A stretch of DNA of 64,000 bases from a virus (IMGVR_UViG_3300007511_000004:1-64000), one strand, 5' to 3'; positions 43,737-61,196 are shown, counted from the first letter of the stretch. The notes: a model not told the origin generated them from the sequence alone. Program-made: numbers and translations.

Positions 43737-45172
43737 TGGCAAGATTAAATTTTCCTAATAACCCCTCAAATAATCAAGAATATACCGCCAACGGAAATAA
43801 GTATAAATTCCGTCTGAAGCCCGGTACCTCCCACGGGTCTTGGCGGGCGACAGCCTTCCAGGATGCGCCTAGAGGTATAGCAGCTGCCGTTGAATTCGGG
43901 ACAGTAACAACCGGGTCCGCAGGATCCGATGCTTCGGTTTCTAATTCCGGTACCTCAAGTGATGCAGTTTTCAATTTTACTATTCCGCGGGGAGACACTG
44001 GTCAAACTGGTGCTAAGGGTCAGAAAGGCGCTGTTGGCGCAACCGGAGCAAAGGGTCAGAAAGGCGCTGTTGGCGCAACTGGTAGTACTGGTTCTAAGGG
44101 TCAAAAGGGCGAGCTGGGATTAACTGGTGCTAAGGGTAATACTGGCTCGACTGGTAGTACTGGCTCGACGGGTAGTACCGGGGCAAAGGGTAATACTGGC
44201 TCGACTGGTAGTACTGGTGCTAAGGGTAATACTGGCTCGACTGGTAGTACTGGCTCTACCGGCTCGAAGGGGCAAAAGGGTGCCACCGGCGATATCCCCT
44301 CGTCGCCGACATTTACCGATGGATATGTCAATGGCTGGTGGAGAAATAATACCTCAGGCAAAGGTCTATATAACCAAGCAACGGGTCAACACTGGTATTC
44401 CGATAACGATGATTATTGGAATATTGCCGGTGGTACCGCTGCAAACGGTATTAGATTTAGAGACGACCACGACGGTACTATTCGGGGTTATATGTATGTT
44501 GACCAATCAAGTAACGTTGGTTTCCTAAACTCTGGCGGTCAATGGTCAATCCGTTGTCATATTCCCGATGGCGAATCACCTAACATTTACTTTGAAGAAA
44601 ATGCAAACACAACTTGGTCTGGCGACCCTGGCAATAACGAAGGTAAAATTGAATATCACTCTGACAGATTCTACATTGCAGCAGGGGCAAATTCGAACCG
44701 GGTTTGTCAATTTAGAAGGTCAGGTTCTGACGTAGCTTATGTTGACAACTCAGGGATTTACACCGGAACCGCAACATCAGCTCGATGGGCGGACGTTGCA
44801 GAGAGATATGCAGCAGATGGGGTATATCCACCGGGCACGGTACTTGCTATTGGTGGCGATAAAGAAGTAACCGAATATAAAGCTGGTATGCCCTTAGCTG
44901 GATGTGTCTCCACTAATCCTGGTGTACGGATGAACAACCACTTCGAGGTAGAAGACGAGAATTCTCCTGAAGCAGTTCTTCATCCATACGTTGCGCTTGC
45001 GGGGCGTATCCCAGTATCCATCAACGGGTCGGCTAAGAAGGGTGATTATATTGTAGCTGATGACAATGGTAAAGGCAAGGCCGTTTCGACCTTGCCCTCT
45101 GACATCAATTTCACGTTGATCGTCGGGATTGCATTAGAAGATGGTACAGATCTAGTTGAAGTGAAGGTCTAG
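43736..45172 (+). CDS. Collagen-containing tail fibre with C-terminal autocleaved chaperone-like domain
   Basis: 34 Gly-X-Y triplets; C-terminus [27 protein letters not shown]. Confidence 0.8.
43991..44296 (+). repeat. Collagen-like (Gly-X-Y)34 repeat, Pro-free, Y position mostly Thr/Lys
   Basis: [18 protein letters not shown] ... [12 protein letters not shown]. Confidence 0.92.
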
Positions 45173-45745
45173 TAAGTCTCCACAAGTACCCTCTGTAACC
45201 GGGATATCCCATTTATCGATCATCGCCTTATAAGCTTTATCCCAGATAGGTTGTAGATCAGCGTTCCCGGCATCACCTTGTCGGACACTATCCTCTGCCA
45301 TAGTGTGTTCGGGATTATGTCGTACGAAATAGACCTCGTCAAACTCTTTAGCCTGTTCTACTGCCATCTTTTCGTATTCAGGTTCGAGTTGACGATCACA
45401 AAGTCCTAACTCATGCGCCACTTTATTGAATACTACATAATCTAGGGGTAATCGCTTAGTGATGAATACGTCGCAACTATATTCATGTTCGAGCATTTGA
45501 CTCCAATGTCGATGGAATAACCAGCTGACCGAATAATAATTGCCCCCGATTTCCTTACCAAGAATTTCATGATCCATAAACATAGTAGATCTAACAGTTT
45601 CGGGCATATAGGTTACATTAGCACCTCTTACTCCAAACTTCTCTCGTTCAAGTAGTTTAATACAAATAGTATTTTTTCCCACCCCGTGCGCGCCTACGAC
45701 CGCGATTCTTTTATCGGATTTCCCCAAGGTCTTCTCCCTCATCAT
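45152..45745 (-). CDS. P-loop NTPase/kinase (AAA_28/NadR-like)
   Basis: [35 protein letters not shown]. Confidence 0.7.
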
Positions 45746-46292
45746 TAATAGTATATTGTGATAGATTTAGGGTCTGCATCGTTTTAGTATCGAATTCAAG
45801 CCCAAAATACGTTAAGTTTGTTATAGCAGGTTTTCTTATTGGATCCATGTCAGCGAAATGATCATGCACTAGGTTAACATCATTATGTAAAAAATAAATC
45901 TTAGCTTTATCTAACTGTCTTTCAAGTGTATAATATAATCCTATGCCTGATTTTAAAGGGTCTAATCTAGATCCCGGTGGAAGAGATGGTATAGGGTGTT
46001 TAGATAGATCCTGATCGTATATCTTAAGGATAGGAGAATCCTCGAACTCGATAGCATAATAATCACAGAACGCGTGGGGTTGAACATTGAATCTATTTCT
46101 AATATCTTCATCAGGATGCTGGTCATAGGTAATATTAATACTGGTATCACTAACACCGATAAGCTCAATACCCTCGTCTGTGATCCATGGACACTTAGCT
46201 CGAATCCCCATAGATTCTATGAGACCACGAGCTTTATCAGGCCTAAAGAATTCCTGCCTAGTACCTTCGGTTGTGACTTTCTCTTCAATCAC
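45711..46292 (-). CDS. Hypothetical protein
   Basis: 193-aa ORF overlapping both neighbours in the operon. Confidence 0.55.
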   Translation of the reverse strand: MIEEKVTTEGTRQEFFRPDKARGLIESMGIRAKCPWITDEGIELIGVSDTSINITYDQHPDEDIRNRFNVQPHAFCDYYAIEFEDSPILKIYDQDLSKHPIPSLPPGSRLDPLKSGIGLYYTLERQLDKAKIYFLHNDVNLVHDHFADMDPIRKPAITNLTYFGLEFDTKTMQTLNLSQYTINDEGEDLGEIR

Positions 46293-46677
46293 CTAATTCT
46301 TCCAAATAGTATTCGTAAACATCCGGTACCATCCCATCATCTCTATGTGATATATCAATTTCCTTGATAATCGCGTCGTATGTTTCCGGATCCTCATGAT
46401 AGGGTTTAAAATAGGGATCATCGGGGAGAAGATTCGGATATGATAATACGTCATAAAAGGTCTCGTTGAAATCTTCAGCAATCCAATTGGCATAACATAT
46501 TGCCACGAAATAAGACTTGGCCGGGTAGATCCACTTATCAACTCTTTCATAAAAGTGTTTAATTGCATCTGGTATGATAGTATCGGGCGCCCAGGTTATC
46601 TCGACTCGATTTAGGTCGTCTTTGGTGATATCCTTTAATCTCCGATATACCTCTTGTCTAACTTGCCATTCTTTCAC
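46285..46677 (-). CDS. Hypothetical protein
   Basis: 130 aa, YPAKSYFVAICYA..DPYFKPY; overlaps its neighbours. Confidence 0.55.
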   Translation of the reverse strand: MKEWQVRQEVYRRLKDITKDDLNRVEITWAPDTIIPDAIKHFYERVDKWIYPAKSYFVAICYANWIAEDFNETFYDVLSYPNLLPDDPYFKPYHEDPETYDAIIKEIDISHRDDGMVPDVYEYYLEELGD

Positions 46678-47923
46678 AGATCTTCCCTTCGATTATCGCA
46701 TAATATAATTCAGCGTCAACACTATATATTGAATCTACTAATCCAACTCCCTGTGCCACACAGTACCAATTGAAGGGGTTCCAGGGGAAAGCCATCGATC
46801 GGTTAGCAACACTCTCTACATTAAAATCCGTATCAAACCTGTCATCATTATAGTAGTGTAGTAGTATAAAATCTTTTATTTCATTAATTGAATTGAGTAG
46901 GGTGGCGTCTAACTCCCTATAATCGTAACCACTCTTAATAGATTCTCCGAACAATTTTGCGGCATAGACTATGAATTCGATATTAGTTGCTTCAAGAGGT
47001 TCTACAAAGTGTGCAGCTAACCCATTCGATAATACATTCTTATATGCAATTTTAGATAGGGCACCAGCTTCAAACCTCAGAATCCTACCACCTTCAATCC
47101 CCATTTCTGCTCGGGCTTCTTCGTCACTTATCCACTTGGAAGAATAAACATATCCCCTATTATTCCGATCCTGTAGGGGGATTGACCACTCCCAGCCATG
47201 TTCTCTTTTAATAGATTCGGTATAGTAGCATGGATCTGGTTCTTTAGAATACACTAGAGCCGAATCCAGATGTAGATCGTCAAAGGGAAGGTACTTGATA
47301 TCGAATGGATGAGATAATAGTCTTTTCTGGCCAGTACAATCCACATAGTAGTCTGCTACGTGTCCCTTTATCGATACTACACCATTATCATCAATTATTA
47401 CATCATTATCGTCAATCGTATCATAATGATGATTGATCTTACCTTTTAGGAAATCCCTAAGATAAGGTGCAACCAGATCATTTTGCCAATGGAGAGCTAT
47501 ATCCCACCAAAAGGGATCGTTACTTTCCAGGTCCGGTGGGATGTCGTCTAAAGCAAGTTGGGTATAGGGGCTTAGATTCTTAACCGGTTTCCCAGCCTTA
47601 AAGATATCCGTTAGAACATCCTGATCCGGAAAAAGCCTATCGATGAATGATTCACCGAAGGGATGGAAATACTCTTCTTCAGCCCAGTTAACGAAATTAA
47701 CCCCGTACTTCACGGTTGAATTGGTTTTTGAAATGAAATCTTTTAAATCAATATCCGCTGCTCTTAGAACATCTACTACGGTCTCAGTAACACTTTCGCC
47801 TACGCCAATCGGGGGAATAGTATTACTCTCGATAAGGGTAATATCAAAATCCTTATGGAGGATGAGAGCCGAGAACCAACCAGCGGTTCCACCGCCACAT
47901 ATTAATATCTTTTTTCGGTCCAT
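46658..47923 (-). CDS. Flavin-dependent tryptophan halogenase-like protein
   Basis: GGGTAGW, IGVGES, KYGVNFVNW, DCTG, GWEWSIPL, GYVYS, FVEPLEAT. Confidence 0.88.
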   Translation of the reverse strand: MDRKKILICGGGTAGWFSALILHKDFDITLIESNTIPPIGVGESVTETVVDVLRAADIDLKDFISKTNSTVKYGVNFVNWAEEEYFHPFGESFIDRLFPDQDVLTDIFKAGKPVKNLSPYTQLALDDIPPDLESNDPFWWDIALHWQNDLVAPYLRDFLKGKINHHYDTIDDNDVIIDDNGVVSIKGHVADYYVDCTGQKRLLSHPFDIKYLPFDDLHLDSALVYSKEPDPCYYTESIKREHGWEWSIPLQDRNNRGYVYSSKWISDEEARAEMGIEGGRILRFEAGALSKIAYKNVLSNGLAAHFVEPLEATNIEFIVYAAKLFGESIKSGYDYRELDATLLNSINEIKDFILLHYYNDDRFDTDFNVESVANRSMAFPWNPFNWYCVAQGVGLVDSIYSVDAELYYAIIEGKICERMAS

Positions 47924-48798
47924 TCTAATAATTCTCTATGCCCATTACATCCATCTGTTAAATCGTGTACGTACCTATAGTGCTCAGTAAGACACCTGCC
48001 GAAATAATCGCAATTGCGACAAATATCTGAAACGTTCTTGATTGGCTCGATCAGCGCCCATTTACGATATTCATCAAAACTGTCTAATTCTAAGAAATAT
48101 TCGCGATCCGACACATCAAATTCCAACACGCCGAATTTTCCGCTTGGGGTAATATATACGTGATTGTTACTGAAAGCGTTATAGTTTCCCGATATAGATT
48201 CCTCTATGCGATAGAGGTTTTCAAATTCGAATGGCAGATCTAACTCTAACCACTTTTTAACAAATTCTTCATAATCACTATGCTTAACATTGTGACAGTT
48301 AGCTTGGTTCGTTGAATATGGTTTGATCTCTACAGATCGAAGATTCGAGAGTAAAGATAATTCCTGTACCATGGAAGGTACATCCATATCAAGTACATTA
48401 CGACTTGCAAGTATAAGGACTGAGATTGGTACCGGTGATACTAGCATATTTGCAAATACTATATCACTCCGCTCTCTTGCAGCAAAGTCATATGAGACCG
48501 AAAGCGATATATCATTATCGTGCATGTATGTTTTAGGAGATGCGTAATTGGTAACAATATTAATTACACCATCATAATGCTTACGAATGATCTTCTTCAT
48601 ATCATAGAAGTAATCGTCACCTAATGTTGAGATCTCCCCGCCATATAAATCGATGTGGTGAATATCCGGGATCTCGCTCAACCTCTCATCTAATACCCTC
48701 AGATCAACCTTCTTCTTATCTGCTAATTGTTCACTAGTAAGATAACAAAAATCACATCGAAAATTGCAAAGATATGTGGGGTTGATCGATACGATCAT
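47902..48798 (-). CDS. Radical SAM enzyme with Cys-rich C-terminus
   Basis: CNFRCDFC, YGGE, CRNCDYFGRC..GC. Confidence 0.9.
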   Translation of the reverse strand: MIVSINPTYLCNFRCDFCYLTSEQLADKKKVDLRVLDERLSEIPDIHHIDLYGGEISTLGDDYFYDMKKIIRKHYDGVINIVTNYASPKTYMHDNDISLSVSYDFAARERSDIVFANMLVSPVPISVLILASRNVLDMDVPSMVQELSLLSNLRSVEIKPYSTNQANCHNVKHSDYEEFVKKWLELDLPFEFENLYRIEESISGNYNAFSNNHVYITPSGKFGVLEFDVSDREYFLELDSFDEYRKWALIEPIKNVSDICRNCDYFGRCLTEHYRYVHDLTDGCNGHRELLEWTEKRY

Positions 48799-49514
48799 AA
48801 CAATTGGGTCTCTTTATAGTATCCTGATTTCAATTTATTCTGACCCCATAGCTGGCTGTAGCCAAGAGTTGCAATGACTGTATATCGAGTTTTATCCGAA
48901 GTGAGCTCGGTCACCTTATGTACGAATGACGGATCATTATTATTTAAGATAATGATTTTATTACGATGTGGGGTATATCTTTGGGTTATCTCTACCTTAT
49001 CAGTGAGGATATCGTCTAACGAGGTCTCCGGTCTCCAATGAGGCATAGGATCACCAGGCTTCCATAGTATATCCGGTCTACCAACTAATAACTCTCCACC
49101 ATCTTCTTCGGTGAAGTCGTCCATATTAGGATAACAGAGTATTTGAAGTAATGTTCCATCATATCCATCAAAGTGCCAGGGTAACCCTCCGCCCTGACTC
49201 ACTTTATTAATATTGACGTGTATTTCGTCGAAATCTCCGTAGACGTGTCTCCAGTAATCGAAATAAGGTAACTGAACTATATCTTGGAAAAATTCTAAAT
49301 ACTGTTGCCGACCTTTAATGTAAACATCTTGATCTCTTTGGTGATATTCCCGATCCCAGACCGGATTCTGTACGATTGACCCATAACTACTTTCGGTACC
49401 AAAAGTCTCTGACATTAGCATGCTGAATAACATAGCGCTAAAAGAAGGATCCACGTCTACAATATCAGCGCCCTTCTTATATAAATCGTTGAAGTTAGGT
49501 ATCTCTTGTATCAT
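48795..49514 (-). CDS. 2OG-Fe(II) oxygenase
   Basis: WHFDG, GGEL, FVHKV, RYT. Confidence 0.8.
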   Translation of the reverse strand: MIQEIPNFNDLYKKGADIVDVDPSFSAMLFSMLMSETFGTESSYGSIVQNPVWDREYHQRDQDVYIKGRQQYLEFFQDIVQLPYFDYWRHVYGDFDEIHVNINKVSQGGGLPWHFDGYDGTLLQILCYPNMDDFTEEDGGELLVGRPDILWKPGDPMPHWRPETSLDDILTDKVEITQRYTPHRNKIIILNNNDPSFVHKVTELTSDKTRYTVIATLGYSQLWGQNKLKSGYYKETQLL

Positions 49515-50043
49515 AATTAAACGTCACTACAATTCGGGCTTCGGGAGATTTGGGCTGAGAAGAACTATGGAATTTTAATCCATTGAACCACATTGTTCTA
49601 TTTGCTACAGAATCACATACACTTTCTATAGTATATTCTTTATGTTGTTCCGGTCCATTCTCTTTATATATGTAGGTTGGAGCAGTACTATCCGTTACGT
49701 AATAGAGCTGGGTTGTGTGAGGTTGCATATAGTCTACATGGGGATCATGCACCATACCACCCTCATTACTATTAAATATATATCCGATTCGTATCCGGAT
49801 CAGACGACCGAAATCTAGGTTAATCAGTGGGGATAATAATCCAAACAATCTTTTATCATTGATATTCCCATTCCGATAAACCACAGTAGAGAATCCATTT
49901 TGGTTATCACTGCCCCCTTTCTTTACCACATTCTTATTAAACGTCCATTGGGTTTCGGGAGATAGGATTTCTTCATGAATTAGTTTGTGTGAAAAGGGAG
50001 TTAGGAAATTGTCAATTATTTGCATGAATAATCCTTTCTTCAA
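49495..50043 (-). CDS. 2OG-Fe(II) oxygenase
   Basis: PHVD, LYYVTDS, NR..WFNG..FHSS, RIVVTFN. Confidence 0.8.
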   Translation of the reverse strand: MKKGLFMQIIDNFLTPFSHKLIHEEILSPETQWTFNKNVVKKGGSDNQNGFSTVVYRNGNINDKRLFGLLSPLINLDFGRLIRIRIGYIFNSNEGGMVHDPHVDYMQPHTTQLYYVTDSTAPTYIYKENGPEQHKEYTIESVCDSVANRTMWFNGLKFHSSSQPKSPEARIVVTFNYDTRDT

Positions 50044-51004
50044 GCTCTTTCATTAGACTGCAATGCTTTTCCACCATATCATGCTGCTTCATATCCTTTA
50101 TGGTTTTCTTGCATCCATTACAGATCTGGAATAATGCACAGGCGTAACACCCGCTATGCATAGTCTGGATATCAAGCTCTTTCTGCAGCGGGGTGAAGAA
50201 TTCACCGGCCATCTCCTTTTCGAAGTCAATGGAGTATTCTCGATCATCCCCAAATGATCCGCAACTATAATAATCGCCACTTGGCTGCATCGCTCTAATT
50301 GTATAATCACAGTCTCTATTCTGTGGACAAACCATAGCCTCATTTCGGAGTCTCTTAACCATCTGCTTCGTATTAAATTCCCATTCCATTAGACCCGATT
50401 CATAGATCTCCAGATACTTGCTATACATCTTAGATAATTGATACGGTCGGGATTGAACGCCCGAAGCCATTGCGTAGTTTAGCTTACATTCAACTCCCAT
50501 CTCCTTTGCAAGTTTGACATTATCAAGTGCGGTATCTTCATTCTCTTCGTCGATAACTGATATGAAATCGGGTCTGTATCCGACCCATTCGAGCATCTTG
50601 TCTGATACCGCCCAGAAGTCTTCTTCCGTGAAAACGCTATAATCACCCTTCAGTCTCGAGCTGCCATAATGAAATGACGTGGTTATACCCATACGCGGAT
50701 GAGTAAAAATATCGATCCACTTCTCTGGCTTCTGGTAGAAAGGCCAGAGATTAGTTGTAAAGGAAACAGTTGCTCGATGATCGTGATCGTCAAGGTGTGC
50801 TAATAGTTTCTTATAATACGAAGGATCCATCATTAAAGGATCCCCGCCATTTACAATAATAGTGTTGGTATCCGGAAACCGCTCCAGGAATCTATAGATT
50901 CGGTTAAGTTCTATTTGATCCTTGACGTCGTCTGCAATTGACGTACTTGAGCAGAAAGTGCATTTGAAGTTGCAACGTTCCGTGGGCTTAATAATTAGTT
51001 CCAT
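50012..51004 (-). CDS. Radical SAM/SPASM enzyme
   Basis: IIKPTERCNFKCTFC, GGDPL, CP..RDC..YSC..CYACALFQICNGC. Confidence 0.92.
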   Translation of the reverse strand: MELIIKPTERCNFKCTFCSSTSIADDVKDQIELNRIYRFLERFPDTNTIIVNGGDPLMMDPSYYKKLLAHLDDHDHRATVSFTTNLWPFYQKPEKWIDIFTHPRMGITTSFHYGSSRLKGDYSVFTEEDFWAVSDKMLEWVGYRPDFISVIDEENEDTALDNVKLAKEMGVECKLNYAMASGVQSRPYQLSKMYSKYLEIYESGLMEWEFNTKQMVKRLRNEAMVCPQNRDCDYTIRAMQPSGDYYSCGSFGDDREYSIDFEKEMAGEFFTPLQKELDIQTMHSGCYACALFQICNGCKKTIKDMKQHDMVEKHCSLMKELEERIIHANN

Positions 51005-51630
51005 AATGAAATACCTGCATTGATGGTATACCGATTAACGTTATTATTGGTTAACCTCTTTACTGAATGTACCAAGCGGGGGTTTCCATTATTCAATAGA
51101 ATTACTTTCCCGTTAGCTGGATACACAGTGTGCTTAGTTTCGACCTCCCCGTCAGGCCAGGTTCTTTCGCCGAGTTTAAGATACGATTCCCACTCATTAT
51201 CCCATCTACTTTCCTCAGTGAAATAGATTAGGAATCCGATATCGTGATCTTCTACCCCATCCCAATGCCATCCAAGCTCCGCTGATCCGTTCCACACATC
51301 TATGAATTTTAATTTATGATTATAGCCGCAAGTTCTTTTAAACCACCCGGTGTAATGCGGATCACCGAATAATTCATTTATCACCTCTATATAAATTGGA
51401 GGAACAGACTCGACGCTTTTTTGATTGACTTGCCCCTCACGATCTCTGTGATATTTTTTAGCCTTCTCGGGTGCACCATCTGCTGCATTTATACTCCAGT
51501 CTGGCACACCTTTATATTCAATGTGATCTACCCAATTCTCAGATAAAAGCTGACCCCAGACCATAGCATTAAGATGGGTAGGCAGCTCCCATTCATCATA
51601 CCCATCCTTGTAGAATTTATCGACGTTCAT
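50995..51630 (-). CDS. 2OG-Fe(II) oxygenase (paralog of 48795-49514)
   Basis: WHWDG, LNNGNPRLVHSV, RYT. Confidence 0.8.
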   Translation of the reverse strand: MNVDKFYKDGYDEWELPTHLNAMVWGQLLSENWVDHIEYKGVPDWSINAADGAPEKAKKYHRDREGQVNQKSVESVPPIYIEVINELFGDPHYTGWFKRTCGYNHKLKFIDVWNGSAELGWHWDGVEDHDIGFLIYFTEESRWDNEWESYLKLGERTWPDGEVETKHTVYPANGKVILLNNGNPRLVHSVKRLTNNNVNRYTINAGISLWN

Positions 51631-52100
51631 ATTGCCGTTGTTCCTAGCCGAGTTTTTCCCTCACCTGTAATATATAGCTGAAGGTCTGATACCTTGGCTA
51701 TTCTAATGATACCGTAGAAGGGCGAGGCTGTGTGATAGACGTAAGCGGGGAAGGTTACTGTCATACCAGTAGTCGGTTTAATAATATATGGTTCGAAGTG
51801 TGAGGCCAACTGCGAGGGGTAGCCACGATTAGCATTACCTCGCGGGTCGTGAAGTATTAGTTCCCCGCCCTCCCCTGAGACGTGTTCATAGTAGATGGAT
51901 GTGAAGTGAGCGTGACCGTGATTATGAGTCGCTAGCCAATAGCCAGACTGTGGGCTTGTTTCCCAGTTACGGATAGCGTGATCAAGTTGATCAAGATCCT
52001 CCTGAAAATAGATTTGTAAATATTCTTTGAATCGTGTCCCAGGATCAGGGTTACCGTTCTCTTCAACGTGTATCGGGGTGGACCACATCATAAACCTCAC
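51627..52100 (-). CDS. Putative 2OG-Fe(II) oxygenase (TIGR02466-like)
   Basis: HNH, GGELILHDPR, FPAYVYH. Confidence 0.75.
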   Translation of the reverse strand: MRFMMWSTPIHVEENGNPDPGTRFKEYLQIYFQEDLDQLDHAIRNWETSPQSGYWLATHNHGHAHFTSIYYEHVSGEGGELILHDPRGNANRGYPSQLASHFEPYIIKPTTGMTVTFPAYVYHTASPFYGIIRIAKVSDLQLYITGEGKTRLGTTAI

Positions 52101-53052
52101 TTAAAAAACATGTATCTTGAGTTCTGAAACTTTGGATGTGGTTTGATAAAAAACATCCCATATTACAATACTGGAAGTGTGCACATTCAAGACAGTTGTA
52201 TTGTTTGAACCATTTCTCTTCCATCTCAAATTTGGATGGTTGATAATTCCGTTTTAGATCTTTTACTAGAATTGTACATGGGCCTGATGTTCCATCGGGT
52301 AAAATGGTAACAGTATCCATGCAGGTCATTTGCTTCTTTACCTTGTTTTGCATATCGTTAAAGGGTAGAACCTTTGGATACTTATCCAGCATGTATAGTA
52401 TAAAATCCCGAAGCATAATATCATTAGGTAGGAAGGTATCCATATTAGCTTCGGGCGTATAATAGTCAAAGTAGATACCAAATCGATCATAAAGGTAATC
52501 GAAAAACGGTACATCGTCTCTCATGAATTTCCGGATACTCGGCTTCGTCATAATGACATTCACCGATTTAATATAATCCCTATACCTTCTTACATTCTCC
52601 TGGAATATCGGAAAGGTGGTCTTATTGAATCGGGCAGAAGGGTCGTAACTAGTTAATAAAGTAACCGGATCCGATCCTAACATTATATCGAATCTTTCGG
52701 TGTTTGTAAATACGAAGTTAGTAGTAAAACAAATTTCTAGATTAATACCTTCGCTGAATGCCCAATTATTTAATTCACGTATGACCTTACCGTAATCCTG
52801 AAATACCCTATCAGGTAAAGCGTCAGCGAAGACCTCTCCGCCCATAAAATGTACACTATAGTCCTCTCGGGGTAAACTCTTAATCCGACCCTTGATTATA
52901 TCGATCTTTTCTAGAATGGTATCGATACCGAAAAAACTATTATGGTCCTGACTGCAGAATTTACAATTCAGATCGCAATATTCGAAGAGAGTGACGATGA
53001 TCTCTCCAGTCTTACCCCTTTTACCCGTCCGGCTTATTACATCAATTGACAT
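52063..53052 (-). CDS. Radical SAM/SPASM enzyme
   Basis: CDLNCKFC, MGGE, FTTN, CLECAHFQYCNMGC. Confidence 0.9.
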   Translation of the reverse strand: MSIDVISRTGKRGKTGEIIVTLFEYCDLNCKFCSQDHNSFFGIDTILEKIDIIKGRIKSLPREDYSVHFMGGEVFADALPDRVFQDYGKVIRELNNWAFSEGINLEICFTTNFVFTNTERFDIMLGSDPVTLLTSYDPSARFNKTTFPIFQENVRRYRDYIKSVNVIMTKPSIRKFMRDDVPFFDYLYDRFGIYFDYYTPEANMDTFLPNDIMLRDFILYMLDKYPKVLPFNDMQNKVKKQMTCMDTVTILPDGTSGPCTILVKDLKRNYQPSKFEMEEKWFKQYNCLECAHFQYCNMGCFLSNHIQSFRTQDTCFLSEVYDVVHPDTR

Positions 53053-53578
53053 TCTTGAATACCATATTACAAACCAAACTGATCCGGGTATCTTCTCCTA
53101 GGTATGGAGTTACTTCGTGCCAGATGTAATAAGGAGCTGCGATCAATAATCCGGTTTTTGGCTCTATCTCAACATAAGGTTCTCGACAGAATGATTTCCG
53201 ATTAGTGAACCTCGGGTCGTACAGTCTCAGCTTACCGCCTTCCTCTGATTCGTTTGAATAGTAAACGGCAAAGGCATCTATCTGATCATGGGTATGACAG
53301 GATTTGAAGTCCCCACGATCCATCGGATTGATGATATTAAAAGAATCCATATCATAGTCGGGTGGATGGTCATAGTGGAAACATAGTGCATCGAAAGCTG
53401 ATTTAAAGCGCTCGCGGATAGTTCTCATATTATCAGAGACCCACAAATCCACATTATAGTCAGCGGGTTTCGTTGGAAGAGTGGCGATAATAGCCTTGGA
53501 GGTATTTAAGATATCCTTATTAAACTCGTCGCTATCATCATATTGTTTAGTGTATATAAAGGATTCAAATTCTATCAT
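53042..53578 (-). CDS. Putative 2OG-Fe(II) oxygenase (TIGR02466-like)
   Basis: HTH, GGKLRLYDPR, WHEVTP, RISLVCN. Confidence 0.8.
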   Translation of the reverse strand: MIEFESFIYTKQYDDSDEFNKDILNTSKAIIATLPTKPADYNVDLWVSDNMRTIRERFKSAFDALCFHYDHPPDYDMDSFNIINPMDRGDFKSCHTHDQIDAFAVYYSNESEEGGKLRLYDPRFTNRKSFCREPYVEIEPKTGLLIAAPYYIWHEVTPYLGEDTRISLVCNMVFKNVN

Positions 53579-54705
53579 AACCTAAAATTATTCAATTCTC
53601 CACTATTAGCATTTTTCAATTTATAGATGTAGTTTAGGAATAATACATTTACCTTCAATCGATCTTCACATTCGAATGCCGAAGTGGAAAGGGGCTTCAG
53701 TTCTTCCGCCATGATCGAACCAATTCCCGCAGTGTCGATATACCCCAGTGACAGAGAATCGTATACAGCATCCATTATAGTATCAGATAGATTTTCCTCG
53801 AATGGGGTTTGGCTATTCTGGGTAACTGCTTGCATCATTTCAGATCGGATTGTCGAGAATCGGATATTAGGATGACGGTTTACATAATCGACTCTGTGGT
53901 ACTTTCCTTCATCATCGAATAACCAGCGGGTTCTATCATTAGTATCCTTAAGCGCTATTAGATCATCTTCAGCATTCACATCACTGATCCCGAGAACCCC
54001 TTGGACCCAGCTTTTATAGATGTTATAGAATAGGTGAGATTTGAGGAACTGAACCTCCTCGTTACATTTCTTACCCAATAGTTTTAACATCTTCTTTCCG
54101 AGGCTACCATTATGATCAGACCCGCTTGCGAGGTAATTTGCAATTAAGAACTCCACCCCGATATTAGGAATAATCTCCGATCGTAATACCGAATAATCTG
54201 CCCATGATAGATCTAACGTTATGGCATTCCACTTAGTGATAAATTCAGACTTACTTAGATAAGTAATCCCCTTAGCATTATTCTTTTGTTTTTCCAGCCC
54301 ATCGTTTGCGCCCCATAGAAAAGTAGTGGTATTTTCTAACTGGGAATTGAGACTGAATGTATTATAAATCTTCCATGCTATATCAACATGTAAAGTTTCA
54401 AATAGTAGCTTTATGAATTTAATAATTATCTTATCATAATTATCACGATTGACGTGGATATTCACTGTACCTTTATTCTTAAGCGCAGTAAAGAAATCTT
54501 TATCATTATCATATGGGGCGTCATCCCCGGTCCACAGTTCCTCTAGGTCGTCTACATTGTGCATCTGGGCCTTCAGATCCCTCCAGGCAGTCTTCAAATC
54601 TTCGAGGAAGATGGAGTTTAAATTAGGGGTAATAACCATGTTATCGACATTATTGTCCATTAAGTAATCGTACTTAACGTAAACTTTATCAAAGAGCAGA
54701 AACAT
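53575..54705 (-). CDS. Hypothetical protein
   Basis: 376-aa ORF coupled within the operon. Confidence 0.6.
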   Translation of the reverse strand: MFLLFDKVYVKYDYLMDNNVDNMVITPNLNSIFLEDLKTAWRDLKAQMHNVDDLEELWTGDDAPYDNDKDFFTALKNKGTVNIHVNRDNYDKIIIKFIKLLFETLHVDIAWKIYNTFSLNSQLENTTTFLWGANDGLEKQKNNAKGITYLSKSEFITKWNAITLDLSWADYSVLRSEIIPNIGVEFLIANYLASGSDHNGSLGKKMLKLLGKKCNEEVQFLKSHLFYNIYKSWVQGVLGISDVNAEDDLIALKDTNDRTRWLFDDEGKYHRVDYVNRHPNIRFSTIRSEMMQAVTQNSQTPFEENLSDTIMDAVYDSLSLGYIDTAGIGSIMAEELKPLSTSAFECEDRLKVNVLFLNYIYKLKNANSGELNNFRL

Positions 54706-55432
54706 ACTCTAATTCCTTTTGCATTTGGTGTTGAAAGTCTTCATGGATAATTTCCCCTGATGAGACCCCATATGTTAACATAGCCATGAAATTATTAGGA
54801 GTAGTCCAATAGTAAAACATATTTTTACCTTTGAACATCGGTTCGTTGAATTGTTTTTCCATATAGTATACTGGGATATCTAATGCGAGGATGGCCTGAG
54901 CCTCCTCCCATTCATACATTTTTACATAATTTACCCCAATGTAATCATAGTCGTCAATTGTCTCAAACTCGTTCTTTGCTGCTTCCCGTATCGCTTCATC
55001 ATTAATGGTAGTTACATTAAAAACTGACCCGGAAGCAATAGCGGTTAGCCACCTATTAATTATTTCAGGATTCTCTGATCGGAATTCCGCCATCTCATCA
55101 TCATTTAGAATATATTCAATATCGTAAATCTCGTCGATCCATTCGAACCCGGCTTCTTGATAGAGCATTTTAAGTACGGTCAATTCGGAATGAACCGAGT
55201 TAATGATCAACCTATGGTTCATATAGACCAGAATATAGTTTTTACGATCAGCTAATGATACCTTATCCCAGCCAACTATATTACAGGGGATATCCAGATT
55301 GCTGACGTAGGTAATCAACTTATCTTCTTTTAATATGCTTTCGCTATAATCAATATTAAAGATGATACTATCATCATTAAAATACTCCTTCAATTCCTCC
55401 ATGGGAATAGGAGCCACAGTATCTTTTATCAT
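54689..55432 (-). CDS. Hypothetical protein
   Basis: 247-aa acidic ORF immediately downstream of the candidate precursor. Confidence 0.6.
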   Translation of the reverse strand: MIKDTVAPIPMEELKEYFNDDSIIFNIDYSESILKEDKLITYVSNLDIPCNIVGWDKVSLADRKNYILVYMNHRLIINSVHSELTVLKMLYQEAGFEWIDEIYDIEYILNDDEMAEFRSENPEIINRWLTAIASGSVFNVTTINDEAIREAAKNEFETIDDYDYIGVNYVKMYEWEEAQAILALDIPVYYMEKQFNEPMFKGKNMFYYWTTPNNFMAMLTYGVSSGEIIHEDFQHQMQKELEYVSAL

Positions 55433-55435
55433 AAT

Positions 55436-56011
55436 TTATCTACGTCCTCTTGAAGTGTGACAGTCGTAATGACAACTATAATGACAGGTATCAATGTCTC
55501 GGGTGAGGGCGGAATCCCTTACATTCCGATATGCGGTTCGTACTGATGACAGATACGATTCCATTTCACTGGAGGATATGGTCCTACCAGAATTCACTGT
55601 ACTGGAATACCCTGGCGCGGATACGGATGATCGAGCATTGTATGTTCCGGATGTGGGCTGATACGCTTTAGCAGTACTATCAATCTGCAACTCACTAGTA
55701 CCATTGTTATCGAAATATCTTCGAGCCCGCATATTCCTCATATGGGTCCAGTCAGTTGCGCCGGTGACCATCCCAGTCCGGACTGTCGAAGCAGTAATAG
55801 TTCCCCCGGAAGAACCTAGATCATTATCTGACATATATCCAGTGCTGCTAGGTAAAGATGCAGTAGAACCCCCGAACCGATCGTTAGGCATTTCGGAAAA
55901 AGGTTTACTGTTAGTCCCCCATGATACTGAGGCTTTCGCGTCGGCCGCAACATAATCCTGCCATCTCTTACGAACGTTACTTCGACTGATATTATTTGTT
56001 AAGGATACCAT
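55436..56011 (-). CDS. Ser/Thr-rich protein with C-terminal (CHxx)3-RGRR tail; candidate radical SAM substrate/precursor
   Basis: Ends DTCHYSCHYDCHTSRGRR*; these are the only Cys in the protein; embedded among maturase-type enzymes. Confidence 0.65.
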   Translation of the reverse strand: MVSLTNNISRSNVRKRWQDYVAADAKASVSWGTNSKPFSEMPNDRFGGSTASLPSSTGYMSDNDLGSSGGTITASTVRTGMVTGATDWTHMRNMRARRYFDNNGTSELQIDSTAKAYQPTSGTYNARSSVSAPGYSSTVNSGRTISSSEMESYLSSVRTAYRNVRDSALTRDIDTCHYSCHYDCHTSRGRR

Positions 56012-56012
56012 A

Positions 56013-57035
56013 TTAAATCCTGTCGATCTGTTTATTTGTATTTATGTCTTTTAACAACATCATTAGAGTTTTCGGGGAGGGACATGTATCACCTTCCCAT
56101 TCTAATTGATGGCAATCTGATCCACACACGTCGAATACCGGGCATTCGAAACAAGCGGGGTTTCGATTCAATTCCTTCATTATAATACTACATCTGCCGT
56201 TTGATTTTAAAACTTCAGACGCAGGCTGATTTATATGCCCATATGCGTTTTGGGGAGCGGTATTAGGGCATCCAGCAATTGAACCATCAGCATTAATAGT
56301 AATTAACTTTTGTTCACAGTCTCGACACCAGGTACCTTGGCTCGGATTGTTTTTCTCGAACTTGGCGTAAATATTCTCCATGATTACATGATATATGGAA
56401 TCCCGGTCATTCAATTGATTGTGGTATCTAACAAACCAATTATCGATCTCTTTATTCGAAGGCCATAATCCGGAATTAAGCTTGGCGTTGCCATCCATAG
56501 TAATCCGCTCAAAGTCTAATTCATGGATACCGAGACTTGACATGTAGGCAATGATCTGCTTCGGTGGCATATCTAGAACAGATTTACTCATACTAACGAA
56601 GCATTTAACAGTATATCCCATACCCACTAATAATTTGACATTATCCTCCCATAATCTTCGCTGTTTTACATTGGCGAATCTGATAGTAGGATCCCAAGAA
56701 GTACCGATGCGCTTATTGAGAACATCCTCAAAGAATTTGAGCTTCTCTTCGGTGAGTTTATACGTAAGGTTTGATGTGATACCATAATTATCCCCATCGG
56801 TCAATTCAACGAATCTTCGCAACGAGGACACGGGCGCGAGCATTGGCTCACCACCATGAAACTCATACCAAATAGAATCTGCAGTTAATTGATTAACCCA
56901 GGCTGCAGTTGCCTCGGGATCGAAGTAGATCTTCTGACCAGAAATCCCAGAAGTGAAACAATGAGAACAATTGAGATTACAGGTCTCAGTTGTTTTCACA
57001 TAAACGGATAAGCGTTTCGGTGTCGTTAATTGCAT
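56013..57035 (-). CDS. Radical SAM/SPASM enzyme
   Basis: YVKTTETCNLNCSHC, FHGGEP, CRDC..GCP..CFECPVFDVCGSDC..CP. Confidence 0.92.
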   Translation of the reverse strand: MQLTTPKRLSVYVKTTETCNLNCSHCFTSGISGQKIYFDPEATAAWVNQLTADSIWYEFHGGEPMLAPVSSLRRFVELTDGDNYGITSNLTYKLTEEKLKFFEDVLNKRIGTSWDPTIRFANVKQRRLWEDNVKLLVGMGYTVKCFVSMSKSVLDMPPKQIIAYMSSLGIHELDFERITMDGNAKLNSGLWPSNKEIDNWFVRYHNQLNDRDSIYHVIMENIYAKFEKNNPSQGTWCRDCEQKLITINADGSIAGCPNTAPQNAYGHINQPASEVLKSNGRCSIIMKELNRNPACFECPVFDVCGSDCHQLEWEGDTCPSPKTLMMLLKDINTNKQIDRI

Positions 57036-57456
57036 ATGAAACCATTAATGCCTTTTTATCGTTGATTGCCCGATGCCGGACGTTTGCCGGGATTAGTAGG
57101 GTCTCTCCAGGATGAATCGTATACACCTTACCCTCGACCTCCATCACTTTCTCTCCATCATGACATTCTATGTGAACATCATGTGGATCTGTATGCTCTT
57201 TGAATGTAGTACCATGTGCCGGATTGTAGAAGAAATGCATAGTTCTATCGTTTAGTTGATACAATCTTTCCATCTGCTCAACCTTAATAGTGCATTGACC
57301 CTCTGCTATAATAACCCCCAGTCGGGCTAAATATCCACAAAAGTCCAGATCACTATTAAGATAATGTTGAAGGCCGTCTCTATCTATATACGACACATCA
57401 TGATTTAGGTAGCACTCGGGAGAGTCTACGAAATTAAAAAAGTCTTTGAAAAACAT
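56986..57456 (-). CDS. Cupin/JmjC-like protein
   Basis: FKEHTDPHDV..C.DGEK, PGETLLIPANVRHRA. Confidence 0.75.
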   Translation of the reverse strand: MFFKDFFNFVDSPECYLNHDVSYIDRDGLQHYLNSDLDFCGYLARLGVIIAEGQCTIKVEQMERLYQLNDRTMHFFYNPAHGTTFKEHTDPHDVHIECHDGEKVMEVEGKVYTIHPGETLLIPANVRHRAINDKKALMVSYAINDTETLIRLCENN

Positions 57457-57486: not shown

Positions 57487-57515
57487 ATTATATCAGGTTT
57501 ATCTACATTTGTAAA
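57487..57515 (-). promoter_or_regulatory. Sigma70-type promoter driving the minus-strand radical SAM operon
   Basis: On the minus strand: GGGGG-TTTACA-17 bp-TATAAT, about 30 nt upstream of the cupin ATG. Confidence 0.75.
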
Positions 57516-57520
57516 CCCCC

Positions 57521-59458
57521 TTGGAGAATATTATGAGAAAAATTTGTATAAATCTTAAATCGCGCCGGGATAGACGAACTCGGATCAATACTGAGATAGC
57601 TCCTAAAATTGGTGAGATTGAGTTCATTACCGCTGTAGACGGTAAAACCGCTGACTTCAGTTCACCTATTAATAATACCAACTTTTCTTCCAAGAAGGGG
57701 TGGCGAGATCCATTCTCCCGACGGCCTATTACGGTTGGTGAAATGGGATGTTTTGCTTCCCATTTTAAAGCGTGGGAAATGGTCTTAGAAGCGGCTGAGC
57801 CTTGCATTATATTTGAAGATGATATCGATATTAACTGGGACCTTTGGGATGAATCGAAGCTCGAAGAAATCATGAAGGTGAATAAGGGGGATATTAGCCT
57901 TCTTCTCTTGGGATATAATGAAAATGAACCGGAAAATGTTATCCAACATCCAGAGTATGATAATGTTATCATTCCGGCCTACCCCTACAATGCACACGCT
58001 TACATATTGAATCCCCACGCAGCACAGTGGATGGTTGCATGCGAAATCAATAAGGAAGTTATCCCTGTTGATGAATTCATTTCAGATATGAGAAGGGAAT
58101 ATGGCAAAAACGTCAGAGCGCTAGATACCAATTGGGTCAATCAATTACCTAGATCTGAGTGGGGGAGTAATATAGAACCACAATCTGATCAGGATTGGTT
58201 TATTGATTTTGGTATGCACGCCGTAACAGTTGGCACGGATACCACTCGATGCAATAAGTTAATGTCCAGCGCTACCATAAATGGGTTTGATGTAAAGAAC
58301 CTCGGGATCAATAAAAAATGGACTGGTGGCGATATGACAGTAACTGGCGGGGCGATGAAGATCCGCTTACTACGAGAATATCTTACCAAATTAAAACCCC
58401 ATGACGTGGTTCTGTTTACGGATGCCTATGATGTATTTTACACGGGTTCATTGGAAGAGATCGTCCGCCGATATTTAGATACAAAGTTTGATATTCTATT
58501 TGCCGGAGAGAACAACTGCTGGCCCGATGAATCTTTAGGAGATCTGTTCCCCGATACTATTTCTGAATACAAGTATCTGAACAGTGGTACCTTTATAGGC
58601 ACGTCGAGTGCTATATTGCAGCTAATTCAATCAGATGTTCCTGATGATTATGATGATCAGCTCTATTATCAACAAAGGGTATTGAATATCCCTATCAATA
58701 ATCAGCATATCCAGGACCACGGTTTAACTATTGGATTAGATGTTGAACAATACATCTTTACCACCTATGATCCTGAATGTTACGTATTGAATAATCAGGT
58801 CTTTAATCCCAAGACGCATTGTTACGGATTAGTGTATCACGGAAACGGAGGGACCGAGGCAAAGGAAGACTTTGCACGGAAATACGATCAGATATTTAAA
58901 CCTTCCACTGCTTTGTATATCCCATCCATGGGAAAGTTTGATATACTTGAAAAGGATATGCTACTTGTTGATTTCATGACAAGTGATCAATGTGAACAGT
59001 TAATTGAAATTGCTGATGGGCACGGGGAATGGGAGCCATTACCTGGAGATAAATTCCCAGCCTATGAAATTCGAATGAAAGAATTGGGCCTATGGAATGA
59101 TCTCCTTAAACATTGGGAAGAAAATCTCTATCCTATTATCGAGAAGCATTGGTGGCCAATTCAAATGTATGGTTTGAGAGATGCCTTTGTAATGAGGTAT
59201 TCAGTTGATACACAGAAATCTCTCGCTATGCACCATGATGCAAGTCTTGTTACGGCTTCAGTTAAGTTGAATGATAATTATAAAGGGGCGGTATTAGAAT
59301 TTCCTCGGCAGGGTATCAGTAATGCGGATATCCCACCAGGTAAGGCAATATTATTTCCGGGTATGGTTACCCACGGACATGAATGCACTACCTTACAAGA
59401 GGGGGTTAAATATAGCCTTACTATGTGGTCAAGTCGCTATACTGGAGATGAAAATTAA
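57521..59458 (+). CDS. Tri-domain protein: GT25 (COLGALT-like) + PLOD-type glycosyltransferase + lysyl-hydroxylase-like 2OG dioxygenase
   Basis: INLKSRRDRR, AVDG, WRDPFSRRPITVGEMGCFASH, FEDD; GGAMKIRLL, LFTDAYDV, AGENNCWPD, YLNSGTFIG, DDQLYY; FVMRY, HHDAS, FPG.VTHGHE. Likely start is the ATG at 57533. Confidence 0.85.
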   Translation: MENIMRKICINLKSRRDRRTRINTEIAPKIGEIEFITAVDGKTADFSSPINNTNFSSKKGWRDPFSRRPITVGEMGCFASHFKAWEMVLEAAEPCIIFEDDIDINWDLWDESKLEEIMKVNKGDISLLLLGYNENEPENVIQHPEYDNVIIPAYPYNAHAYILNPHAAQWMVACEINKEVIPVDEFISDMRREYGKNVRALDTNWVNQLPRSEWGSNIEPQSDQDWFIDFGMHAVTVGTDTTRCNKLMSSATINGFDVKNLGINKKWTGGDMTVTGGAMKIRLLREYLTKLKPHDVVLFTDAYDVFYTGSLEEIVRRYLDTKFDILFAGENNCWPDESLGDLFPDTISEYKYLNSGTFIGTSSAILQLIQSDVPDDYDDQLYYQQRVLNIPINNQHIQDHGLTIGLDVEQYIFTTYDPECYVLNNQVFNPKTHCYGLVYHGNGGTEAKEDFARKYDQIFKPSTALYIPSMGKFDILEKDMLLVDFMTSDQCEQLIEIADGHGEWEPLPGDKFPAYEIRMKELGLWNDLLKHWEENLYPIIEKHWWPIQMYGLRDAFVMRYSVDTQKSLAMHHDASLVTASVKLNDNYKGAVLEFPRQGISNADIPPGKAILFPGMVTHGHECTTLQEGVKYSLTMWSSRYTGDEN

Positions 59459-59466
59459 TATAAATA
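59459..59466 (+). promoter_or_regulatory. T4 late promoter
   Basis: TATAAATA upstream of gp13. Confidence 0.75.
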
Positions 59467-59500: not shown

Positions 59501-60253
59501 ATGGCAGTAACCTCTAGATCAGCTTTATCAGATTACGCACTAAGAAAGTTAGGTTCTCCGGTGATCGAGATTAATGTCGATCCAGACCAAATTGAGGATC
59601 GCATCGATGAAGCGCTGGAAAAATATCGGGAATTCCATGCCGATGGAACGGTAAGGACTTTCGTTAAACATCAGATGTCCGCGGCGGATATCACGAATGG
59701 ATACATAACTCTATCCTCGGATATCATCTCAGTCACTAGAATGTTTTCCCTCACTTCTTCATTCCAAACTTCGAGGAACTTCTTCGATGTTAAGTATCAA
59801 ATGATGCTCAACGATATTACTGATATGCAGAGTTACGTTGGAGGTCTGGCTTTCTATGAACAAACCCAACAGTACCTTTCCATGTTGGACATGAAGTTAA
59901 ATGGTGCACCAACTACTACATTTGCACGTAGACAGAACAGACTCTACATCCATGGGGATACAGTTGATGGCGATCTCGTTGAGGACGATTATGTCGTACT
60001 AGAGGCTTATGCGATTGTCGATGGCACTACATATACCTCTGTTTGGGATGATATGTGGCTCAAGAAATTCGCCACGGCTCTTATTAAAAGACAGTGGGGC
60101 AACAATATGCTAAAATTCGAGGGTATGCAATTACCGGGCGGGGTCACCTTAAATGGCAGACAGATCTACGACGACGCGATCCAGGAGATTGAGAAACTAG
60201 AGGAAGACTTGAGACTGACCTATGAGCTTCCTGCAGATATGATGATAGGCTAA
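59501..60253 (+). CDS. gp13: Neck protein
   Basis: YALRKLGSPVIEINVDPDQIEDRIDEAL, LIKRQWG.N..KF.GMQLPGGVTLNG. Confidence 0.95.
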   Translation: MAVTSRSALSDYALRKLGSPVIEINVDPDQIEDRIDEALEKYREFHADGTVRTFVKHQMSAADITNGYITLSSDIISVTRMFSLTSSFQTSRNFFDVKYQMMLNDITDMQSYVGGLAFYEQTQQYLSMLDMKLNGAPTTTFARRQNRLYIHGDTVDGDLVEDDYVVLEAYAIVDGTTYTSVWDDMWLKKFATALIKRQWGNNMLKFEGMQLPGGVTLNGRQIYDDAIQEIEKLEEDLRLTYELPADMMIG

Positions 60254-60257
60254 TAAA

Positions 60258-61148
60258 ATGCGTAATCCGTATTTCAGATATGATGTAAGATCAGAACAAA
60301 ATCTTTTCGAAGATATCACTATTGAATCCTTGAAAATTTATGGTCAGGATATCTACTATCTTCCACGCGATATTATTGCTGAAGATAAGATCTTAGGTGA
60401 AGACGTCACTTCTAGGTTTAACTCGTCATATAAAGTTGAGATGTACATCGAGAACACTGATGGCTTTGATGGAGAGGGAGATCTATTCACCCGATTCGGT
60501 ATCGAAATTCGGGATCAGGCAACCTTCGTTGTTTCTCGTAAGAGGTGGCAACAGACGGTTCAGAGGTATGATAATGATATCAATGCTCCTCGGCCCGCAG
60601 AAGGGGATTTACTTTATATCCCATTTTCCCGTAAGTTATTTCAGATCATGCACGTTGAGCATGAACAGCCATTCTATCAGTTAACCAACCTTCCGACATA
60701 TTCACTACGTTGTGAACTATTCGAGTATAACGGAGAAGATTTCGATACTGACGTAGAGGTTATCGATTCCATTGAGCGGGATTATGCGTATACCTATATG
60801 CTTACCCTTAACGATAGCGCTCAATCTGGTACATTCGTATTAGGGGAAACTGCTAATATGACCCTTGCATCCGGTACTATTATCTCGGGTGAGGTATCTC
60901 GTTGGAGCGATTCGGATAATAAGCTGGGGCTTATCCACGTCGGAGCTAATGATGGTAACTATCACGTATTTGTTACGGATAGAAGTATTAGCGGTGCATC
61001 CTCTTCTGCAACAGGTACTGTAACGTTAGTAGAAGAAGAGGGTCTAATCAAAGCCGGATCAACTGATACTGAGCAGAACCAATATTTCGATAGTCTAGTT
61101 GATTTCTTGGACTTCTCAGAAAGCAATCCATTCGGAGATCCCGCATGA
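60258..61148 (+). CDS. gp14: Neck protein
   Basis: SEQNL.ED..IES.KIYGQD.YYLPR, GDLFTRFG, P.EGDLLY, DFSESNPFG. Confidence 0.95.
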   Translation: MRNPYFRYDVRSEQNLFEDITIESLKIYGQDIYYLPRDIIAEDKILGEDVTSRFNSSYKVEMYIENTDGFDGEGDLFTRFGIEIRDQATFVVSRKRWQQTVQRYDNDINAPRPAEGDLLYIPFSRKLFQIMHVEHEQPFYQLTNLPTYSLRCELFEYNGEDFDTDVEVIDSIERDYAYTYMLTLNDSAQSGTFVLGETANMTLASGTIISGEVSRWSDSDNKLGLIHVGANDGNYHVFVTDRSISGASSSATGTVTLVEEEGLIKAGSTDTEQNQYFDSLVDFLDFSESNPFGDPA

Positions 61149-61196
61149 CATTTAAAGTATTTTTAATAAACTTATCCAGAGTGTAGGAGCAGGAAT

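Follow-up and report, generated by a model that had tools for sequence, protein, structure and literature searches.

A conserved C-terminal Cys-His repeat tail encoded beside radical-SAM enzymes in phages and predatory bacteria

Radical-SAM (rSAM) maturation is known mainly from small secreted peptides, to which a small number of whole proteins have recently been added. In the classical rSAM RiPPs (sactipeptides, ranthipeptides, and triceptides), a short leader precursor is combined with an RRE, and a Cys- or aromatic-rich core is encoded beside its rSAM/SPASM maturase. For the triceptide rSAMs that act on His motifs (e.g., HaaB/HtkB; PMC11499958) and form three-residue cyclophanes, the crosslinked unit is reported to consist of an aromatic residue, any residue, and a third residue. 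As for whole proteins, HxsA of the HXS antiphage system (Li et al., Nat Commun 2026, PMC13128918) comprises 214 aa with five HxS repeats and is matured by HxsB/HxsC; a change of +8 Da occurs on SHRSS, and His and Ser are essential. CrpA of Methanococcus voltae is reported (PMC13692751) to acquire ranthionine (thioether) crosslinks from the rSAM/SPASM enzyme CrpC. The anaerobic sulfatase-maturating enzyme, anSME (PDB 4k36/4k37), acts on a whole protein, a sulfatase, in which a Cys or Ser within a short motif is modified.

We analyzed 64,000 nucleotides of viral DNA (IMGVR_UViG_3300007511_000004:1-64000; hereafter, "the window"), which derive from a complete virus genome of 146,556 bp with terminal repeats. 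The virus is a marine T4-like phage, with homologues of the neck proteins gp13, gp14, and gp15 encoded at 59501-61958 and tail-fibre genes at 41250-45172. Between these genes, the window encodes a 191-aa protein whose last 16 residues (176-191) read CHYS-CHYD-CHTS-RGRR. These residues are called the tail below, and their carrier the tail protein.

This protein resembles HxsA in being a full-size folded protein with tandem H-x-S units that is encoded together with several rSAM/SPASM enzymes. The differences are as follows. Here, an invariant Cys opens each unit, the period is four residues, there are three units, and the protein ends in R-x-R-R. The enzymes are four rSAMs with a cupin and 2OG oxygenases, with no HxsD, and the carriers are phages and predatory bacteria, whereas HXS is a host defence island. 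Moreover, one homologue here, gp170 of Agrobacterium phage Atu_ph07, is a virion protein. A likeness to HxsA had been proposed in a sequence-only reading of the same DNA, and the H-x-S motif itself bears this out, but models for HxsA, HxsB, HxsC, and HxsD all remained below their cutoffs. When the HxsA model (TIGR03976-03979 set) was compared with the tail protein and four homologues, there was no match at E ≤ 10, and the two have nothing but bare H-x-S spacing in common. The enzyme encoded directly upstream, rSAM1, scored 35.2 bits against HxsB (cutoff 370), and rSAM3 scored 31.6 bits against HxsC (cutoff 267.9), which is no better than their scores against many other rSAM families; a search for HxsD among the cassette proteins p130, p193, p197, p182, and the cupin gave no match. 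Judged by these model comparisons, the tail protein is not a member of the HXS system. It might nevertheless be a phage counterpart of the HXS effector, i.e., an rSAM-matured basic DNA binder used in superinfection exclusion or counter-defence: HxsA is a full-size, rSAM-matured HxS-repeat protein that binds DNA, and the window protein has a pI of 9.4 and the basic RGRR end. We consider this highly improbable, given that no HXS model reached its cutoff. In addition, the window protein has no signal-like N-terminus or peptidoglycan-binding domain that is visible in its sequence or in Pfam, and other members are not basic (pI 6.4 for gp170 and 6.6 for RSL2 ORF068).

Similar comparisons were made with the other systems. 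CrpA is likewise a Cys-rich full-length protein encoded beside the rSAM/SPASM enzyme of which it is reported to be the substrate. CrpC is reported to contain an RRE and N-terminal recognition domains, whereas rSAM1 has none; the organisms and the motif also differ. The H-x-S spacing fits the three-residue cyclophane unit, whereas the cyclophane substrates are short leader-containing peptides, unlike the tail protein. The window rSAMs matched the cyclophane-maturase models weakly, and no better than they matched other rSAM families. With the classical rSAM RiPPs, the tail protein shares the Cys-/aromatic-rich core encoded beside an rSAM/SPASM maturase, but its precursor is not a short leader peptide, and rSAM1 has no RRE.

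The tail, its conservation, and the protein that carries it

The gene of the tail protein (191 aa, 20.9 kDa) lies on the minus strand at 55436..56011. The tail itself is encoded at 55439..55486 (minus strand) and is followed by the stop codon TAA at 55436-55438. Read from 55486 to 55436, the DNA consists of three 12-nt units, TGTCATTATAGT, TGTCATTACGAC, and TGTCACACTTCA, each of which is led by TGTCAY, and then of four Arg/Gly codons, AGAGGACGTAGA, and TAA. Minus-strand translation confirmed the earlier claim that periodic TGTCAY units encode CHYS-CHYD-CHTS-RGRR. The gene also begins one nucleotide past the stop codon of the preceding rSAM gene, as had been noted (TAA at 56015..56013, a single base at 56012, and the ATG from 56011).

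The pattern (TGYCAY N6)x3 occurs at one site in the complete virus genome and at none in a reversed control, and (Cys-His-x-x)x3 is likewise a single occurrence in that genome. By our own arithmetic, the full tail DNA pattern has a per-position chance of about 1e-14; nonetheless, it matched at least 120 IMG/VR contigs, of which 118 contained an ORF ending in the motif (143 such ORFs). In prokaryotic contigs sampled at one genome per species, the pattern matched 47 sites, about 38 of which were genuine ORF ends. The tail motif is real and far from chance.

A word-indexed search recovered 27 homologues with 32-62% identity. The tail was present in all 27, with nine invariant positions (C176, H177, C180, C184, H185, R188, G189, R190, and R191), and the mean column identity in this set was 48%. 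An exhaustive profile search then gave 608 representative clusters (E ≤ 1e-3; clustering at 50% identity), and the best 150 of these 608 were surveyed for the tail. In approximately 146 of the best 150, the motif C-H-x-S-C-H-x-[S/N]-C-H-x-S-R-x-R-R formed the exact C-terminus. An end of the type CH..CH..CH..RGRR was found in 99 of the 150, and nearly all the others varied solely at the Gly (R-[S/I/V/T/L/N]-R-R); the exceptions were a handful of sequences with two or four repeats or an altered second unit, and two that were apparently truncated. The RGRR end of the sequence-only reading is thereby retained in its three Arg, but not in its Gly, which varies across the family (S, I, V, T, L, N). 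Of 99 sequences, 94, 77, and 88 had Ser at position 4 of units 1, 2, and 3, respectively, and most of the others had Asn there. The profile included the tail, so that this survey is somewhat biased; nevertheless, most of the score came from the body, for which the mean column identity was about 21%. These alignments show stronger conservation in the tail than anywhere else in the protein. Variation of the tail among close homologues had been raised as a possible objection to a modifiable core; when checked, the tail proved to be the least variable part.

AlphaFold2, run on the 27 sequences, predicted the body as a confident, compact alpha/beta domain (pLDDT 83.8, pTM 0.79). Residues 178-186 of the tail were drawn as a short helix, with a low pLDDT of 43-53 for the tail. 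The N-terminal region had previously been read as a phage structural or fibre domain, a view that does not agree with this compact alpha/beta model, for which no PDB fold was matched. Foldseek returned nothing against the PDB at E ≤ 0.001, an exhaustive structural search (VIA wide) found no PDB relative (best Z 3.8), and the BFVD matches were uncharacterised phage proteins only, including Atu_ph07 gp170. Scans of the tail protein with Pfam, PHROG, and NCBIfam assigned no family, and NCBIfam gave 0 families even at E ≤ 10 for the tail protein and four homologues. A tblastn search of the 191-aa protein, the tail of which is short and repetitive, against 50,697 phage records found nothing, as did a megablast search of 10 kb of the window against phage records. 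Pfam 38.1 includes PF27846 (rSAM target, Cxxx repeat), and a neighbouring Atlas cluster has this label on 19% of its members.

Profile comparison indicated that the last 62 residues (helix, strand, and tail) are common to the window family and gp170, with a probability of 97.6%, and that only the last 26 residues are common to the window family and RSL2 ORF068. Members of the family are folded precursor proteins of 170-300 aa. On the strength of these profiles, we describe the family as a conserved C-terminal module of about 60 residues on variable folded bodies; by the same sequence comparisons, it is a large family without a name, with members in phages and in Bdellovibrionota.

A tail of this composition could be an unmodified metal- or redox-active site, in which case the neighbouring rSAMs would act elsewhere. 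The three Cys and three His, spaced i/i+4, would then lie on adjacent helix faces and bind Zn, Fe, Cu, or an Fe-S cluster; the ligands could be shared between the chains of an oligomer, as the sequence-only reading suggested for a trimer, or the Cys could form intermolecular disulfides. We regard such a site as unlikely. Cys and His are classical metal ligands, a helix was predicted at residues 178-186, and in T4-type fibres metal ions are held by His residues contributed by three chains, all of which would suit it. However, a metal alone leaves both the near-invariant Ser at repeat position 4 and the fixed R-x-R-R end unexplained, the helix belongs to the part of the model with low confidence, and the body was modelled as a compact, monomer-like domain that is neither a coiled coil nor a fibre.

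The enzyme cassette around the tail gene

Seventeen packed minus-strand genes (45152-57456) lie between the plus-strand fibre and neck genes, with intergenic gaps of -50 to +3 nt. They encode a cupin, four rSAM/SPASM enzymes, five or six 2OG-Fe(II) oxygenase-like proteins, a flavin halogenase, a P-loop protein, the tail protein, and several unknowns. The first gene of the cassette (56986..57456) encodes a cupin/JmjC-like protein of 156 aa (Cupin_2, E = 2e-9) and is kept upstream of rSAM1 in most loci. It is followed by rSAM1 (56013..57035), the tail gene, and, directly after the tail gene, p247 (54689..55432; phrog_20767 by PHROG). The AlphaFold2 model of p247 has a pLDDT of 92; a Foldseek search with it, made with a peptidase or an RRE in mind, gave no fold match, and in VIA its best Z was 4.7 over 54 residues, with values of about 3.5 to the C-terminal halves of rSAMs that are too weak for use. 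Next comes p376 (53575..54705), which has a weak similarity to RSL2 ORF069 (E = 6e-5). The remainder of the cassette, 45152..53578, consists of genes that are found again in related loci. According to family scans (Pfam/PHROG-type), it contains, in the direction of the minus strand, a 2OG oxygenase (53042-53578), rSAM2 (52063-53052), two 2OG oxygenases (51627-52100 and 50995-51630), rSAM3 (50012-51004), the cassette ORF p182 (49495-50043), a 2OG oxygenase (48795-49514), rSAM4 (47902-48798), and, at the far end of the cassette, a tryptophan-halogenase-like flavin halogenase (46658-47923; Pfam E = 1e-62), followed by the cassette ORFs p130 (46285-46677), p193 (45711-46292), and the P-loop protein p197 (45152-45745). 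The flavin halogenase gene is also present in some related loci (L002, L006, and L024) and lies outside the conserved core.

At 57521-59458 on the plus strand, a single 645-aa ORF combines a GT25 domain, a PLOD-type GT, and a C-terminal 2OG oxygenase-like part (PF01755, PF25342, and phrog_61), and resembles a collagen lysyl hydroxylase/glycosyltransferase; it adjoins tail-fibre genes with collagen-like PHROG matches (43736-45172). Before the cupin gene, a near-consensus sigma-70-type promoter, TTTACA-17-(TG)TATAAT, was identified by consensus match at 57487..57515 (minus strand). A second sigma-70-type match, TTTACA-17-TATAAT (11/12), lies at 52682-52710 on the minus strand, inside the rSAM2 gene.

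The number of oxidative tailoring enzymes is unusually high (four rSAMs, approximately six oxygenases/cupins, and the flavin halogenase). This would suit a scaffold for a small molecule or cofactor, which would be built from the C-terminal residues and then released in the manner of PqqA, MftA, or pearlin. The position of the core at the extreme C-terminus also agrees with this, the core of mycofactocin being found at the same place. We nonetheless consider such a scaffold very unlikely. Scans of the cassette with Pfam, PHROG, and NCBIfam picked out neither a protease nor a peptidase. Furthermore, the carrier is a conserved folded protein with a homologue found in virions, and the halogenase and several of the oxygenases fall outside the conserved core.

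The enzyme rSAM1 (340 aa) was classified as a radical-SAM/SPASM enzyme by family scans and alignment. It has CxxxCxxC at residues 19-26 and eight further invariant Cys in its SPASM part, as would be expected for two auxiliary clusters. It lacks an N-terminal recognition domain, and the stretch before the rSAM motif leaves no space for an RRE. All of its family scores fall well short of the curated cutoffs; the highest was that for anSME (TIGR03942), at 43.2 bits against an equivalog cutoff of 349.45, and PapB, DynA, and HxsB scored closely behind. The sole end-to-end match in the PDB was anSME 4k37 (query 11-318 against chain 12-333). Both enzymes have the rSAM core near residue 15-20, a SPASM part with two auxiliary clusters, and no leader-recognition domain. 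rSAM1 is built on the minimal plan of enzymes that, like anSME, act on whole proteins. The substrates can also be compared: the last repeat, C-H-x-S-R, shares its Cys and the Arg at +4 with the sulfatase motif C-x-P-x-R. However, the sulfatase motif has Pro/Ala at +2, which the tail lacks; its +2 residue is G, S, N, or T with no preference for P or A, and the tail protein is not a sulfatase.

Gene order and distribution in phages and bacteria

Tail proteins were found in two forms. For the 165-365-aa form, there were 70 informative loci, i.e., loci with sufficient sequence around the gene; rSAM1 was directly upstream of the tail gene in 61 of these 70, and p247 was directly downstream in 65. 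The usual spacing between rSAM1, the tail gene, and p247 is -17 to +2 nt, as would suit translational coupling. In metagenome contigs, at least 118 of them from IMG/VR, the genes recur in the order cupin - rSAM1 - tail protein - p247 - (p376) - rSAM2 - rSAM3 - rSAM4 - p130, with oxygenases in between; jumbo phages of the phiKZ-like and Rak2-like types and the chromosomes of Bdellovibrionota show the same order. If the tail were an unmodified metal or redox site, it would have to be by coincidence that unrelated phage lineages and bacteria share so tight and ancient a linkage to rSAM1. The second form consists of two tail proteins in tandem (approximately 126 and 127 aa), immediately preceded by a giant ORF of up to 2824 aa, with paralogous 340-420-aa proteins (phrog_31457) downstream and the rSAM genes more distant (loci L008, L036, L083, L114, L069, and L041 are among those of this form).

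The cassette is also present in cultured phages. Ralstonia/Burkholderia Chiangmaivirus phages carry it, for example as ORF066-069 of RSL2, in which ORF068 ends in VCHSSCHTSCHGSRGRR. In Atu_ph07, the cassette corresponds to gp172-165, and gp170 ends in FCHSSCHASCHNSRSRR, also given as CHSSCHASCHNSRSRR. ORF78 of RP31, a virion protein encoded near the rSAM genes of that phage, was considered as a member of the family and rejected, the region being without the motif.

About 27 of the approximately 38 genuine prokaryotic sites were in Bdellovibrionota, which are predatory bacteria, and were surrounded by the same enzymes. Complete chromosomal cassettes of this phylum were found at L177/L178 (G002:C1:~302900-313800) and L179/L180 (G001:C2). 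An 11-kb cassette is located in a 1.29-Mb contig of Halobacteriovoraceae amid apparent housekeeping genes, as judged by N-terminal sequences, and no phage genes were apparent in flanks of about 15 kb on each side. In a Bacteriovoracaceae genome (G001), a 2355-aa ORF with a signal-like N-terminus adjoins the tail gene. In the rSAM1 tree, 11 of 15 Bdellovibrionota copies formed one clade nested among viral copies; this tree was made by a quick method with midpoint rooting and is indicative only. Our literature search found no description of the cassette or of its tail chemistry; Nishimura et al. (2017) only gave a count of rSAM genes, which were many, for marine viral genomes of the T4-like type.

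Virion association, late expression, and possible maturation of the tail

The published virion proteome of Atu_ph07 (PMC6102473 Table S5) lists gp170 as a protein of 31.89 kDa with eight unique peptides and 35% coverage. The mass that we computed from the gene following the rSAM gene (locus L182:6056-6946) is exactly the listed 31.89 kDa. The neighbouring gp165, 168, 169, 171, and 172, which include the rSAM, cupin, and p247 neighbours, are absent from the same table. The extension of the term "virion protein" to the window phage is indirect, because significant homology with gp170 is limited to the last 62 residues. In RefSeq, RSL2 ORF068 is annotated as "hypothetical protein" and the nearby ORF065 as "virion structural protein."

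In the gel of the same proteome study, gp170 was spread over bands 1-9, with its maximum in band 1, at the top of the gel, whereas other Atu_ph07 proteins of 29-32 kDa peaked in band 8 (PMC6102473). This position suggests an SDS-stable form of high mass, held together either by an enzymatic crosslink or by plain disulfides. The high-mass species could be ordinary disulfides, because the published loading buffer lists no reductant (PMC6102473), and a disulfide-linked species would also fit the unmodified redox-active tail considered above.

The upstream sequences were also surveyed for late promoters. The window contains CATAAATA, a 7/8 match to the T4 late box TATAAATA, at 56039..56046 (minus strand); this site falls within the 3' end of rSAM1, 27 nt ahead of the ATG of the tail gene. 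Of 133 related loci, 24 had ATAAATA (mostly as the full TATAAATA) in the 70 nt upstream of the tail gene, and the box was found upstream of the cupin gene in 16 of 56 loci. The corresponding numbers were 1/72 for rSAM1, 1/86 for p247, 1/39 for rSAM3, and 0/28 for rSAM4. A separate late promoter for the tail gene fits a substrate made in bulk, in stoichiometric amounts, beside catalytic enzymes. Perfect TATAAATA boxes occur three times in the 64-kb window, all on the plus strand, and one of them, at 59459-59466, is 35 nt before the gp13-like neck gene.

Against late expression, the first promoter of the cassette in the window looks sigma-70-like, i.e., of an early type. We had therefore considered the cassette to be an early, non-structural operon, but this reading is weakened by the late-box survey and by the Atu_ph07 proteome. 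The same leading promoter would also suit the phage counterpart of the HXS effector, for which the virion location of gp170 and the late-promoter boxes point elsewhere.

Taking these results together, we consider it reasonably likely that the tail protein is a late, particle-associated protein and that the adjacent rSAM enzymes use its tail as their substrate. The location of the cassette between the tail-fibre genes and the gp13-15 neck genes agrees with this explanation, as does the end-to-end match of rSAM1 to anSME, a protein-modifying rSAM; HxsA and CrpA may serve as precedents for the modification of whole proteins by rSAMs. In contrast, four rSAM enzymes exceed what a simple enzyme-substrate pair would need for one 16-residue tail. 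The inference of the sequence-only reading, a structural protein that carries a modifiable core, stands in part. The near-invariant, target-like tail, the linkage to rSAM1, and the virion homologue gp170 all favour it, but the fibre part finds no support. In the form of a full-size and probably structural protein with a modifiable core, it is the best-supported reading, and we hold it with moderate confidence.

In the proposed maturation, rSAM1 would act on the tail, probably together with the other rSAM paralogues and the Fe(II) oxygenases that the cassette encodes. The first chemical step would be the abstraction of a hydrogen atom within the tail. The outcome may be a thioether, in which a Cys sulfur is joined to carbon in a neighbouring residue or protein, a cyclophane-type C-C crosslink from His to Ser, or the oxidation of Cys. 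The matured protein would be made late and would become part of the virus particle or attach to its surface, close to the fibre/baseplate apparatus. The rSAMs may also staple the tail protein covalently to itself or to another protein of the particle, and the giant fibre or baseplate proteins that often adjoin the tail gene are candidate partners; we regard stapling as a rather doubtful possibility. If it is true, an SDS-stable, enzyme-made crosslink would exist in the host-gripping apparatus of phages and predatory bacteria. It would represent a new kind of virion maturation chemistry and would account for the appearance of a 32-kDa homologue at the top of a gel.

To our knowledge, the covalent chemistry of phage particles, such as the isopeptide bonds of HK97, forms without a dedicated enzyme. 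The system described here is very widespread: it includes 608 protein clusters, and it was seen in no fewer than 118 contigs of viruses, in several jumbo phages in culture, and in the predatory Bdellovibrionota. As much as 12 kb of enzyme genes is devoted to a single tail of 16 residues, the carrier of which has a homologue, gp170, that is found in virions. It is directly testable in the cultured phages RSL2, RSF1, FLC6, SURPRISE13, and Atu_ph07. If the tail is modified, this would be a new post-translational chemistry on Cys, His, or Ser and a new step in phage assembly, and it would functionally link phages to bacterial predators.
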